From the NCBI GenBank assembly GCA_965207225.1, contig CBDBLV010000005.1, forward strand, positions 256,001 to 320,000: a DNA stretch of 64,000 nt. Direction: 5' to 3'. The stretch comes from Dehalococcoidia bacterium (lineage in GTDB: Bacteria; Chloroflexota; Dehalococcoidia; Plut-88900). Shown here one piece after another: positions 12,452 to 15,679 of this stretch. Position 1 is the first letter of the stretch. Every line of letters starts with the position of its first letter. Below the pieces are notes generated by a model, which saw only the letters and a program-made list of their open reading frames with translations, searched no databases and was not told where the DNA came from. The position numbers and the translations under genes are program-made.

Positions 12452-12847
12452 ATGGCACTGACCCTGGACGAGTCAATCAAGCTGTGTGAAGCCGCCATAG
12501 CTAAGGCAAACGAGCTGGGAATCAAGATAAGTGTAGCCGTCTGTGACCCGGGCGGAAAACTGAAAGCCTTCGCCAGGATGGATGGGGCTATCTGGGCCAG
12601 CGTCTACGGCTCCCAGGGCAAGGCCACGACGTCCGTCGGGTTCGGCAGGCCCAGCGTGATGCTCCAGGAGAGAGCAGACCACCCGACCATCAAGGGAATC
12701 ATCGCCGCTTCGGGAAGCAACATGATCCCGGGCCAGGGTGCTATACCCGTCATCAGGAACGGTGTCGTGGAGGGGGCCTGCGGGGTGGGCGGGGGCACGG
12801 GTGAGGAAGACGAGATCTGCGCCCAGGCGGCCGTGGACTCTTTATAA
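12452..12847 (+). CDS. GlcG/HbpS-family heme-binding protein
   Basis: ISVAVCDPGG..RMDGA..KATTS..GAIPV..GACGVGGG..DE; GGAGG RBS. Confidence 0.88.
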   Translation: MALTLDESIKLCEAAIAKANELGIKISVAVCDPGGKLKAFARMDGAIWASVYGSQGKATTSVGFGRPSVMLQERADHPTIKGIIAASGSNMIPGQGAIPVIRNGVVEGACGVGGGTGEEDEICAQAAVDSL

Positions 12848-12944
12848 CTTTACCTCCCCCCCGCTCGCACTCCTTGGGGGACTCGGGGCTGGCTTAAGAG
12901 AGCCTCAGCACGAGCGGCCTAACCCCCCGACACCGCCGCAAGGC

Positions 12945-14453
12945 TTAGTCCGACCGGTAGTACTCCATGCCCAGGTGGGTGATCTGCTCTTCGCCCATCA
13001 GCCAGCGTAGGGTGTTCTTCAGCTTGGTCTGCTGGATGAAAAGGTCGTGCTCCGGGTATACAGATGGCGCGTGCTGGGGGCTCTTGAAGTAGAAGGATAG
13101 CCACTCCTGGATGCCCGCCAGCCCCGACCTCTGCGCCAGGTCCATGAACAGCACGAGGTCCAGCACCAGCGGCGCCGCCAGGATGGAGTCCGAGCACAGG
13201 AAATTGACCTTTAGCTGCATCCGCTTCCCCAGCCACCCAAAGAGGTCGATGTTGTCCCAGCCCTCCTTGTTGTCGCCTCTCGGGGGATAGTAGTTGATGC
13301 GCACCTTGTGGTAGGCGTCCGAGTAAAGCTCGGGGTACAGTTCGGGTTGCAGGATGTACTCCAGCACCCCCAGCTTAGACTCCTCTTTCGTCCTGAAGTT
13401 CTCGGGTTCGTCCAGCACCTCGCCGTCCCGGTTCCCGAGGATGTTCGTCGAGAACCAGCCGTCCATGCCCAGCATCCGGGCCTTGAGCATCGGGCCGATG
13501 ACCGTCTTGACCAGGGTCTGGCCGGTCTTGAAATCCTTGCCGCATACGGGCACGCCATTGTCTCGGGCCAGCTTCTCCAGCGCGGGGATGTCGACGGTCA
13601 GGTTGGGAGCGCCGTTGGCAAAGGGCACGCCCTCCATCAGCGCGGCGTAGGCGTATATCATCGAGGGGGCGATCTTCTCATCGTTGTCATGCAGTGCCCC
13701 AACGAAATCTTCGATACCCTGGTGCACCTCGTTTTCCGTAACGAATTTTTCGGTCGAGGCGCACCAGACCATGACCAGGCGGTCGCAGCCGTTTTCCTCT
13801 TTGAAACGACGGATGTCGCTGCGGATGGCATCAACGGCGGCCAGCTTGGAGTCCATCGACTTGACGTTCACGCCATCGATGCGCTTCACGTAGTCCTGGT
13901 CGAATACGGCCGGCATGGGCTCGATGGACTTCAGGAAGTCGGCGATGGGTTCCACCTGGTCGTATCGGTCCAGGACCCCGGCCTTTGAGGCTGCCTGGTA
14001 GGCGTTGTCGGGTATCGGGTCCCAGGCCCCGAAGACCAACTGGTCCAGGTCGGCCAAGGGCACGAAGTCCTTTATGAGCGGGGTCCGGCCGTCGGGCCTT
14101 TTGCCCAGGCGGATCGTAGCCATCTGGGACACCGACCCCACCGGGCTCCCCGTGCCCCGACGTATGTGCTCCACGCCCGCGATGAAGGTGGATGACACCG
14201 CCCCCAGCCCCACCAGCAGCACCCCGAGCTTGCCGTCGGCGGGTTGGATGTCGGGGGCGCCGGGCGCCACGAAGTCCTTGGGTTCCAGGGCTATACCCTG
14301 CTGGTAAGCAAGTTCCAAGAGCTTTTCGTGCCACTGGGCCGGGATCCGGGCCGTCCTCACCCAGTGCTGCACCGTGCTCTGTCGCTTGCCCAGCAGTGCT
14401 GCCAGCGCTGACTGCCCACCGAATCGTTCGATTATCTGCTTTGCGTTATTCAT
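12945..14453 (-). CDS. ino1: myo-inositol-1-phosphate synthase with N-terminal Cro/YdaS-like HTH fusion
   Basis: VGLGAV Rossmann motif, WCASTE, NGAP, GKDFKTGQT, NILGNRDG, DSILAAP, SFYFKSP; first ~60 aa (IIERFGGQSALAALLGKRQSTVQHW...IP) are Cro-like HTH. Confidence 0.92.
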   Translation of the reverse strand: MNNAKQIIERFGGQSALAALLGKRQSTVQHWVRTARIPAQWHEKLLELAYQQGIALEPKDFVAPGAPDIQPADGKLGVLLVGLGAVSSTFIAGVEHIRRGTGSPVGSVSQMATIRLGKRPDGRTPLIKDFVPLADLDQLVFGAWDPIPDNAYQAASKAGVLDRYDQVEPIADFLKSIEPMPAVFDQDYVKRIDGVNVKSMDSKLAAVDAIRSDIRRFKEENGCDRLVMVWCASTEKFVTENEVHQGIEDFVGALHDNDEKIAPSMIYAYAALMEGVPFANGAPNLTVDIPALEKLARDNGVPVCGKDFKTGQTLVKTVIGPMLKARMLGMDGWFSTNILGNRDGEVLDEPENFRTKEESKLGVLEYILQPELYPELYSDAYHKVRINYYPPRGDNKEGWDNIDLFGWLGKRMQLKVNFLCSDSILAAPLVLDLVLFMDLAQRSGLAGIQEWLSFYFKSPQHAPSVYPEHDLFIQQTKLKNTLRWLMGEEQITHLGMEYYRSD

Positions 14454-14461
14454 AATTGGCA

Positions 14462-14490
14462 ATTGTAACGATATTTTCGTTATCAGTCAA
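14462..14490 (-). promoter_or_regulatory. sigma70-type promoter of HTH-ino1 with embedded palindromic operator
   Basis: TTGACT (14490-14485), 17 nt, TACAAT (14467-14462), then 8 nt to the ATG; inverted repeat TAACGA-N5-TCGTTA at 14466-14482. Confidence 0.75.
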
Positions 14491-14547
14491 TCTTGAACCA
14501 GCAGTACCAGACAAGGTGAGATACAATCTGCCCACGAGAGAAACCTT

Positions 14548-14931
14548 GTGACTACCAGTGAAACCAACCCCGACCTCATATTCGCCGACGCCCGCCGAAT
14601 GTATTCTTCGGCCATGCACCGCATGGACGCCGACGACATCCGTGATGCCGCAGAAAAGGCTTGGTGCGCCACCCTCCGCGCCACCGAGGCCCTGGTCCTG
14701 GCCCGGACCGGCCAGTCTCCCGCCACATCTACCGCCGCCGGTAGAAGGCTGCGCTTGCTAGTAGAGACTAATCCTTCATTGGAAGCCCTCTCGCTCCGGT
14801 ACTCCGATCGCCTAGTAGTCCTCCGCGACGAATGCCTCCGCCATGAATACTGCCAGCCCGTCGTGACCGAGCGGCTCATTCGCGAGACTCCTGACTACAT
14901 CCGGGACGCCGAAGCCCTGTCCCACAACTAG
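14548..14931 (+). CDS. PaREP1/HEPN-like small protein
   Basis: DIRDAAEKAWCA resembles the PaREP1 QASEKAWGA motif; paralog at 35487..35873. Confidence 0.7.
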   Translation: MTTSETNPDLIFADARRMYSSAMHRMDADDIRDAAEKAWCATLRATEALVLARTGQSPATSTAAGRRLRLLVETNPSLEALSLRYSDRLVVLRDECLRHEYCQPVVTERLIRETPDYIRDAEALSHN

Positions 14932-15043
14932 CCCAACCCCATCCCCTGCAGGGGCAATCCCTCGTGGCTGTCCTAGGCCGCTACCTACCCTACCCCCGTC
15001 CCTTTGGCCCCACCCCCTGCCCTGCCCGTATAATGACCTCATC

Positions 15044-15679
15044 ATGGTTAGTGGAATCAATCCCGAAAACGTCAGCGGGGTGGCCCTGGCCGGGGGAATG
15101 AGCAGGAGGCTCGGGAGGAACAAGGCCGTCGAGGAGATAGGTGGCGAGCGGCTTATCGAGCGGGTCATCAACAGGCTGTCCGAGGTTAGCTCCGAGACGG
15201 TCGTCGTGGTGGCGGAGGAGTCCCGGGCCCAGGCCCTCGACCTGCCCGACGGGGTACGCACCGCCGCCGACATCTATCCGGGCCACGGGTCCCTGGGCGG
15301 CATCTTCACCGGTCTCTCCGCCGCCCGCGGAGACTGCGGCATAGTCGTGGCTTGCGACATGCCCTTTCTCAATACCGGCCTGCTCCAGTTCATGGTCGAC
15401 CTCGCACCCGATTTCGACGTGGTAGTCCCGAGGGTCGACGGCAGGCCCGAGCCCCTGCACGCCATATATTCGAAAAGCTGCCTCGAACCGATAGAGAGCA
15501 GGTTGAAGCGGCAGGACCTGAAGATCGCCCTCTTTTTCGAGGAGGTCAGAGTCGCTTATGTGGACGAGGATGACATAGACCTCTTCGACCCGGAGCGGCT
15601 GAGCTTCTTCAACGTCAACACCCAGGAAGACCTGGACAAGGCCCTGGCCCTTGAGGCACAGGGCTATTCCGACGAGTAG
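15044..15679 (+). CDS. mobA: molybdenum cofactor guanylyltransferase
   Basis: LAGGMSRRLGRNKA, GSLGGI, VACDMPF, EPLHAIY, FFNVNTQED. Confidence 0.93.
   Translation: MVSGINPENVSGVALAGGMSRRLGRNKAVEEIGGERLIERVINRLSEVSSETVVVVAEESRAQALDLPDGVRTAADIYPGHGSLGGIFTGLSAARGDCGIVVACDMPFLNTGLLQFMVDLAPDFDVVVPRVDGRPEPLHAIYSKSCLEPIESRLKRQDLKIALFFEEVRVAYVDEDDIDLFDPERLSFFNVNTQEDLDKALALEAQGYSDE

Follow-up and report, generated by a model that had tools for sequence, protein, structure and literature searches.

A 64,000-nucleotide stretch of a Dehalococcoidia bacterium genome (GenBank assembly GCA_965207225.1, contig CBDBLV010000005.1, positions 256,001 to 320,000 of the forward strand; hereafter the window, numbered from its first letter) carries a gene in which a small helix-turn-helix (HTH) domain is fused to a complete synthase of myo-inositol-3-phosphate (MIPS), the enzyme encoded by ino1. 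Judged from comparative sequence analysis, this protein, termed HTH-MIPS, is most likely an autorepressor that binds a palindromic operator, O1, in the spacer of its own promoter. New in this analysis are a candidate auxiliary operator, O2, inside the coding region, and a two-site logic shared by many relatives. O2 appears to be under selection at the nucleotide level, which suggests LacI-like looping.

The HTH-MIPS open reading frame (ORF) occupies positions 12945–14453 of the minus strand and encodes 502 amino acids, with its ATG start codon at 14451–14453 and its stop codon at 12945–12947. Residues 1–62 (14268–14453) correspond to a Cro/YdaS-like four-helix HTH domain, which is known to NCBIfam as “carph-isopro” and is delimited by Pfam and NCBIfam matches and by an AlphaFold2 (AF2) model. 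Residues 63–74 (14232–14267) form a Pro/Ala-rich variable linker, and residues 75–502 (12948–14231) form a complete MIPS domain as defined by PF07994, PF01658, and the PDB entry 7nwr. An earlier sequence-only reading of the window had proposed that some 60 residues resembling a Cro/YdaS HTH are fused in frame to a complete Ino1, and the profile matches within a single ORF bear this out. Head and enzyme are read through without a stop codon, and the same architecture recurs in hundreds of independent assemblies. The linker is modeled with low confidence (predicted local distance difference test score, pLDDT, of 52–58 in a model of the head, and below 50 for residues 62–73 in the full-length AF2 model), and its columns are variable in an alignment of 21 genomes. 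An internal start at the domain junction, where a Shine–Dalgarno-like AAGGA and a GTG at V62 could have yielded an additional head-less enzyme, was considered and rejected because the V62 codon is not kept. Among the 88 loci with a [KR]DF[VI] motif (13 loci lacking this motif were left out of the count), the codon is GTC in 30, GTG in 21, GTT in 21, and GTA in 12.

The enzyme half looks functional by sequence. NAD_binding_5 (PF07994) matches residues 76–483 over its full profile length (positions 1–321 of 321; E 1.6e-96, 324 bits against a cut-off of 25), and Inos-1-P_synth (PF01658) matches residues 311–423 (E 7.9e-32, 110.1 bits against a cut-off of 27). Across 36 homologues there is no variation in the blocks GLGAVSS, GKDFKTGQT, NILGNRDG, SK, and DNKEGWD, which align to 7nwr, and a long invariant block, STNILGNRDGEVLD, is also present in all of these proteins. 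The closest solved structure is chain B of 7nwr, the BT_1526 MIPS (E 9.9e-159, query residues 67–493 against chain residues 23–447), whereas the match to the mycobacterial Ino1 structure 1GR0 is far weaker (E 2.7e-6). BT_1526 is a characterized MIPS of Bacteroides thetaiotaomicron; the paper describing its activity and structure depicts 7NWR as a tetramer, calls the quaternary structure conserved across the family, and mentions neither Chloroflexi nor an HTH (PMC9246714). The actinobacterial framing of the sequence-only reading is therefore beside the point, since the host belongs to the Dehalococcoidia within the Chloroflexota and the enzyme is nearest to the Bacteroides-type MIPS.

The HTH head belongs to a family that has already been catalogued by NCBI curators (NF046037) and yet is unexplained. 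The NF046037 profile matches residues 5–56 with 64.6 bits against a cut-off of 38. The YdaS_toxin profile (PF15943) matches residues 5–40 (E 4.7e-6); its score is 26.8 bits with the whole protein, which is under the cut-off of 30, and 30.7 bits when the head is scanned alone. All 21 fused heads in the alignment match PF15943 at E ≤ 0.01. With the P22_Cro profile (PF14549), the head scores below the cut-off.

On the basis of modeling, the head is predicted to have an all-alpha Cro fold with a helix-turn-helix. The AF2 model of the head, which was built from the alignment of 21 genomes, contains four helices (residues 3–10, 14–21, 25–34, and 39–52) with a pLDDT of 86–91 over residues 1–60, followed by a low-confidence tail. 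Helices 14–21 and 25–34 constitute the predicted HTH. The top Foldseek match of this model is the Cro protein of Xfaso 1 (3bd1; probability 1.00, template modeling scores 0.59/0.68, 35% identity), followed by N15 Cro (6on0, solved on its operator) and P22 Cro. A second structural comparison (VIA) gives Z 7.6 for 3bd1, with a root-mean-square deviation of 2.5 over 62 of 64 residues, Z 6.5 for 6on0, and Z 6.2 for P22 Cro (1rzs); Z values under 8 are middling for small helical domains. Across the 21 genomes, column identity in the head averages 79%, a level of conservation equal to that of the enzyme. The pattern FGGQS..L...RQST..W..T.R.P..W is invariant, and the predicted recognition helix, RQST(V/I)xHW, is conserved.

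The fusion is not unique to this assembly, a point on which the sequence-only proposal of autoregulation had been made to depend. The N-terminal 75 residues retrieve 437 protein clusters of 276–879 amino acids at E ≤ 1e-3 (522 candidates). Among the 120 of these clusters that were listed, all carry the MIPS domain PF07994 and most are 500–520 amino acids long. When one genome per species is taken, the head is encoded in 384 of 423 candidate stretches. For the best 80 of the 384, the frame runs on into an ORF of 497–521 amino acids in 79 cases and leaves its contig in one; the titles of these 80 name Dehalococcoidia, Dehalococcoidales, Chloroflexota, Chloroflexi, or SAR202, with a single exception (Candidatus Poribacteria, on a 3-kb contig). 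That exception, locus L107 (JAPUIP010000728.1, 3,075 bp), has a complete fused gene with a perfect operator on a contig binned as Ca. Poribacteria, and a partial protein (P0226) is labeled Proteobacteria. These two cases could reflect mis-binning or transfer between sponge symbionts. The fused proteins are currently named “inositol-3-phosphate synthase” only, leaving the regulator half unmentioned.

In a phylum sample of 401 evenly drawn genomes, a MIPS of this type occurs in 24, of which 21 are fused, two are unfused (G147 and G225, members of one genus), and one is cut by a contig end. NF046037 scores above its cut-off in 21 sampled genomes and does so always within a fused ino1, save for one free-standing frame described below (genome G145). 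The two unfused loci (L023 and L024) have no palindrome with two or fewer mismatches in 4.3 kb, and their genomes hold no significant head homologue (best E 0.003); their proteins start ∼20 residues before the Rossmann fold. In the gene tree, the unfused pair sits on a long branch (0.95) beside the fused L019, within the fused group (Shimodaira–Hasegawa-like approximate likelihood ratio test, SH-aLRT, 90; midpoint root). The pair may thus represent a secondary loss of head and operator together, with the placement being unsure.

Free-standing relatives of the head are scarce. The 127 matches from a search of shorter proteins are mostly fragments, being either MIPS-bearing or encoded on very short contigs; one partial match is named Tepidiformaceae. 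The genome of the window has one further match that is weak (E 0.34 and 0.004). On a 3.6-kb contig of genome G145 (C109), a free-standing head relative of ∼80 amino acids (110-codon frame at L137:1200–1486; NF046037 49.6 bits) immediately precedes a ParB-like gene. Its promoter, arranged like that of HTH-MIPS, reads TTGACA, a 17-nt spacer with a different inverted repeat (TGGC-aaata-GCCA), TACTCT, 7 nt, and ATG. This layout hints that the head, the operator position, and the leaderless promoter may have been captured jointly from the cro cassette of a mobile element.

In the control region of HTH-MIPS, on the minus strand, a −35 hexamer TTGACT (14485–14490) is separated by 17 bp from a −10 hexamer TACAAT (14462–14467), and the ATG follows 8 nt later (14454–14461 in between). 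No Shine–Dalgarno-like purine run is present in these 8 nt, and the mRNA is predicted to be leaderless. The predicted operator O1, a perfect palindrome TAACGA-aaata-TCGTTA at 14466–14482, fills the spacer, and its final TA provides the first two bases of the −10 hexamer. All of these elements had been recognized in the sequence-only reading and are confirmed to the base. A promoter scan of positions 12700–14700 returned a single sigma-70-like site, this one, with 10 of 12 hexamer matches; shuffled sequences average 0.6 sites. The segment is AT-rich within GC-rich surroundings, as had also been described, with a GC fraction of 0.40–0.42 in 14400–14549 vs. 0.55–0.72 around it. No Rfam family, whether a riboswitch or another known RNA, reaches its gathering score in 12500–15000. 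Lying between the −35 and −10 hexamers of a promoter whose 17-bp spacer is optimal, O1 is placed as a repressor site would be.

O1 is retained at the same place in the promoter of fused loci, which was the other point on which the proposal hung. In all 21 fused loci of the phylum sample, a palindrome occupies the promoter spacer, and it is exact in 14, has one mismatch in six, and has three mismatches in one. When the proximal 70 nt of 98 distinct loci are scanned, the best site found shows 0, 1, 2, 3, 4, or 6 mismatches in 33, 22, 24, 12, 6, and 1 loci, respectively. Information content in these 98 loci is near zero upstream, rises at TTGAC, peaks within the 17-mer, and increases once more at the final T of the −10 hexamer. 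The conservation of O1 is dyad-symmetric (A1/T15 in 100% and C3/G13 in 99%), and its central spacer consists of A/T only. The promoter elements are held at fixed offsets as well: The −35 positions are T in 91%, T in 80%, G in 82%, A in 61%, and C in 65%, and the −10 pattern TAnnaT is conserved with T at the last position in 91%. The left half of O1 adjoins the −35 hexamer, in a part of the spacer for which sigma-70 promoters have no sequence requirement. The right half is less strict and takes degenerate forms in many loci, such as CTGTTA, TTGGTA, and TCGGTA, that are also readable as an extended −10 element (TGnTA).

The palindrome is also specific to this promoter. It occurs exactly once in the 4,032,119-bp genome of the window, where 0.077 copies are expected from base composition, and a position weight matrix (PWM) built from promoter sites only ranks O1 first in this genome (30.3 bits). 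Six sites with one mismatch exist, all within open frames of at least 150 codons. Of the 401 sampled genomes, 30 hold the exact palindrome in one copy each, with 14 copies at the ino1 promoter and 16 elsewhere. The 14 promoter copies have A/T-rich spacers (one with a single C), and 15 of the 16 others have G or C in the spacer, the all-A/T copy of genome G263 being the exception. Four of these 16 copies were inspected (G263, G393, G329, and G323-C20). They are unconnected with ino1 and with the head, three being inside ORFs and that of G263 being intergenic. The genomes G263, G393, and G329 have no significant head homologue. When up to two mismatches to the 17-mer pattern are allowed, there are one to four sites per genome, and these include O1 of G372, G165, and G283, both O1 and O2 of G323, and O2 of G259. 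A wider regulon was considered and rejected: The next PWM matches in the genome of the window (19.3–15.7 bits) are coding or lack promoter features, and the exact or near copies that G263, G393, G372, and G323 have at other places are either coding or unrelated.

The distance from the −10 hexamer to the first in-frame start codon is 6–9 nt in 91 of 97 distinct loci, and therefore a leaderless mRNA is predicted to be a conserved design. Two loci (L037 and L057) have 31–34 nt in this interval, and L057 has an out-of-frame ATG at the usual 7 nt; a sequencing error or a short leader peptide could be the cause. In strength of synonymous constraint, the first five codons of the gene, MNNAK (14439–14453; ATGAATAACGCAAAG), come second (0.70 bits), as expected if an A-rich 5′ end matters for translation of a leaderless mRNA.

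No separate regulator linked to the gene is evident, since no neighboring gene is conserved next to ino1 in 101 loci. The largest non-self cluster found in a search for conserved neighbors or an operon covers 12 of these loci, and it was discarded because the frame that represents it overlaps ino1 itself in antisense. Judged from these comparisons, the gene and its control region behave as a self-contained unit.

A second operator-like site lies within the gene. The candidate auxiliary operator O2 (13739–13755; +698 to +714) reads GACCGAAAAATTCGTTA on the coding strand, is 727 bp from O1, and falls on codons T234-E-K-F-V238 of the ASTEKF motif. Among the ∼4 million positions of the genome, the PWM ranks it second (21.0 bits), directly after O1. 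Synonymous-codon constraint is stronger here than anywhere else in the gene, at 1.0 bit vs. a mean of 0.229 (standard deviation 0.127, 491 windows), and the top five constraint windows of the whole codon alignment all overlap O2, with the 5′ end next. Of 95 distinct genes, 68 have the motif, and in these the codons are pulled toward the operator sequence: GAA is used in 60 of 68 (29% gene-wide), AAA in 64 of 68 (14%), ATT in 60 of 64 (15%), ACC in 67 of 68 (48%), and TTC in 63 of 66 (87%). Four-fold degenerate sites flanking O2 vary freely in the same genes; because these sites are saturated, the constraint is not merely a sign of recent common ancestry. Farther along, 39 bp beyond O2 and over codons GIEDFVG, there is a third operator-like site that is weak (13700–13716, +737, 12.8 bits; coding strand TATCGAAGATTTCGTTG). 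Synonymous constraint is only mildly raised there (0.46–0.49 bits), and the site is shared by the closest relatives only.

The distribution of O2 follows the phylogeny. The best non-promoter PWM match falls at +690 to +745 in 79 of 101 loci, a count in which relatives are not deduplicated. Of the 96 distinct loci, 67 have O2, and it lies 725–727 bp from O1 in 35 loci and 737–741 bp in 30 (725–753 bp overall). All 68 O2-bearing rows of the alignment belong to one clade of 81 rows (SH-aLRT 100), and the more distant fused clade and the unfused genes have ordinary GC-rich codons at this position. Inside the large clade, a subclade that lacks O2 has two upstream sites 96–98 bp apart, as seen in six loci; two upstream sites also occur in L017 (95 bp apart) and L025 (31 bp apart). 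This pattern argues that two operators are wanted, as would match a protein with two DNA-binding units. The subclade includes L044, L054, L063, L066, L091, and L111, from SAR202 and sponge-associated metagenome-assembled genomes, and has moved to a different design, in which the operator-promoter is distal, near −126, and the proximal site, near −30, is degenerate. With the promoter at this distance, the mRNA would have a leader, and in L063 and L066, the only two that were read, a GGAG/AGG purine run follows the proximal site.

These observations can be assembled into a simple mechanism. Two HTH heads of the enzyme oligomer would bind the two half-sites of O1, whose centers are 11 bp apart, or approximately one helical turn, with dimerization of the heads supplied by the enzyme body. 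Occupancy of the spacer would exclude RNA polymerase, such that the level of the enzyme limits its own synthesis through negative feedback. The mRNA would be leaderless and begin at or next to the ATG. Because MIPS enzymes are tetramers, a second pair of heads would be available to bind O2, 727 bp downstream, and the resulting LacI-like loop would strengthen repression. A similar loop could form in the subclade whose second site lies ∼96 bp from the first, where both sites are upstream of the start codon. The further conjecture of the sequence-only reading, that NAD+ or sugar phosphates may tune DNA binding, is reasonable by likeness to RbkR, an archaeal enzyme-repressor described as being under ligand control by CTP and FMN (PMC5397151). 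In its most elaborate form, which we offer as a tentative and still somewhat doubtful extension, the protein would be a looping autorepressor tetramer with two heads on O1 and two on an O2 encoded in synonymous positions of its catalytic-motif codons, the whole unit of leaderless promoter, operator, and head having been captured from a phage or mobile-element cro cassette, and loop stability may depend on which catalytic state the enzyme is in (NAD+/NADH, glucose-6-phosphate, inositol phosphate). If this is true, the enzyme would report flux directly to its own promoter.

Several observations weigh against autorepression through O1 and O2. The loci compared are relatives, and their counts are not independent events; likewise, the unfused control comes from one genus and amounts to a single independent case. 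Co-variation between the recognition helix and the half-site was looked for and is not seen, both being nearly invariant, and thus the link between the HTH and the site rests on their co-occurrence. The full-length AF2 model has a mean pLDDT of 50.5 and is uninformative on the placement of the head relative to the enzyme. Some of the conservation in the right half of O1, including G13, may belong to the promoter rather than to an operator. Moreover, the structural matches of the head include the HTH-like N-terminal domains of MPnS, HEPD, and HppE, which are structural parts of these enzymes (Z 5.4–7.5; among individual entries, 6b9s has Z 7.5 and 1zz6, 6b9r, and 2bnn have Z 5.3–5.5). This last observation, the lack of co-variation, and a Pfam YdaS match that is marginal (26.8 to 30.7 bits around a threshold of 30) would all be accommodated if O1 were the operator of a separately encoded regulator and the head, like the N-terminal HTH-like domains of HppE, HEPD, and MPnS, were a module with a role in structure or protein contacts and no longer in DNA binding. 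We consider this improbable, since the palindrome accompanies the fused gene and is not found at the two unfused loci examined, O1 is the sole exact copy in the genome, and no regulator gene is conserved alongside in the 101 loci. In addition, the head, including its recognition helix, is conserved as much as the enzyme, and its nearest folds are operator-binding Cro proteins with 31%–35% identity. It is also conceivable that the protein, bound at O1, activates its promoter or switches it in both directions, for instance through a MerR-like reshaping of the spacer. Activators of the MerR type also bind between the −35 and −10 hexamers, and plant MIPS1 is described as binding and stimulating its own promoter (PMC3597657). 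This alternative is very unlikely because the spacer has the optimal 17 bp in the window and the site is at a fixed offset in 98 loci, rather than the overlong 19–20 bp of MerR-type promoters, the hexamers are near consensus (10 of 12), and the plant mechanism proceeds via chromatin enzymes that have no counterpart here.

A more serious challenge concerns O2 alone. O1 could be a real operator that suffices by itself, with the constraint at the catalytic ASTEKF motif reflecting a rare-codon pause, RNA structure, or another coding signal. O2 departs from the operator motif at key positions 2 and 13 in most loci, with A at position 13 where the promoter site has G in 99%, and it could for this reason reflect coding- or RNA-level constraint instead. 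Three of its fixed codons (GAA, AAA, and ATT) are rare synonyms in these genes, and the more distant fused clade manages without the site. However, the other two fixed codons are common ones (ACC in 67 of 68 and TTC in 63 of 66), and all of the constrained third positions match the operator consensus. A PWM made from promoter sites only places O2 second among ∼4 million positions, and two of four near-matches in G323 (3.8 Mb) and one of two in G259 fall within ino1. Furthermore, a K-to-I change in the motif retains the A/T spacer, and the subclade without O2 has gained a second upstream site 96–98 bp away. We therefore regard an O2 that is no operator as rather unlikely, while giving this alternative substantial weight.

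If HTH-MIPS acts as an autorepressor, it belongs to a known kind of protein. BirA, PutA, and NadR are bifunctional enzyme-repressors, or “trigger enzymes” with their own DNA-binding domain. As in these proteins and in RbkR, a metabolic enzyme and an HTH-type domain share one polypeptide, with a predicted operator at the promoter of the gene itself. Unlike RbkR and BirA, which control pathway or transport genes, HTH-MIPS has a predicted regulon consisting of its own gene only. As for RbkR, the operator was found through comparative genomics (PMC5397151). A literature search, conducted mostly without subscription journals, found no paper on the HTH-MIPS fusion, its operator, the intragenic site, or “carph-isopro.” Thus, enzyme-repressor fusions are a known kind, and the combination of MIPS with a phage Cro/YdaS-like head is one that was not found in the literature.

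The 60-residue head itself resembles the all-alpha Cro proteins of phages (Xfaso 1, 3bd1; N15, 6on0/2hin; P22, 1rzs) in its fold, with 31%–35% identity to Xfaso 1 Cro, and its predicted target is likewise a palindrome of ∼17 bp that overlaps a promoter. Phage Cro proteins are free polypeptides of 60–70 amino acids, whereas here the head is the N-terminus of a 502-amino acid enzyme. The two-site pattern recalls LacI, which has auxiliary operators O2 inside lacZ (+401) and O3 (−92). HTH-MIPS similarly has a promoter operator and a weaker candidate site hundreds of base pairs into the coding sequence, or ∼96 bp away in one subclade, and belongs to a tetrameric protein family, although for HTH-MIPS the tetramer is inferred from the homologue 7NWR. 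LacI is a dedicated repressor with an inducer, whereas HTH-MIPS is predicted to be a working enzyme, and its two sites are 725–753 bp apart. In Corynebacterium and Mycobacterium, ino1 is regulated by a separate factor of the LacI type, IpsA. Both systems place transcriptional control on the first committed step of inositol synthesis, with control of HTH-MIPS being predicted, and unlike in IpsA systems, a separate regulator is not evident at HTH-MIPS loci. Plant MIPS1 is described as likewise sitting on its own promoter and differs in that it has no HTH, activates transcription, and acts through histone methyltransferases (PMC3597657).

Two plus-strand genes of the window lie near the HTH-MIPS promoter. 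The divergent neighbor (14548–14931) encodes 127 amino acids with a weak, below-cut-off match to PaREP1 (HEPN-like; E 0.001), and it is not conserved beside ino1 in other genomes. The other gene (15044–15679), 600 bp from ino1, encodes a MobA-like nucleoside triphosphate (NTP)-transferase (PF12804, E 1.3e-34), a family that also covers inositol-phosphate cytidylyltransferases. Since this gene lies directly before an aldehyde-oxidoreductase homologue, a role in molybdopterin metabolism is the simpler reading.

Enzymes that also repress their own pathway are few, and each is informative on the dialogue between metabolism and transcription. If our interpretation is correct, the first committed enzyme of inositol synthesis would join the enzyme-repressors, in largely uncultured Dehalococcoidia, SAR202, and sponge- and soil-associated Chloroflexota. 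The circuit would be minimal, a single gene with its promoter and one or two operators. If O2 proves genuine, an operator would be written in the synonymous freedom of a catalytic motif, and this site would provide a testable looping prediction for the enzyme tetramer. In addition, the conserved leaderless layout supplies ∼100 natural variants of a promoter with which leaderless expression in Chloroflexota could be studied.

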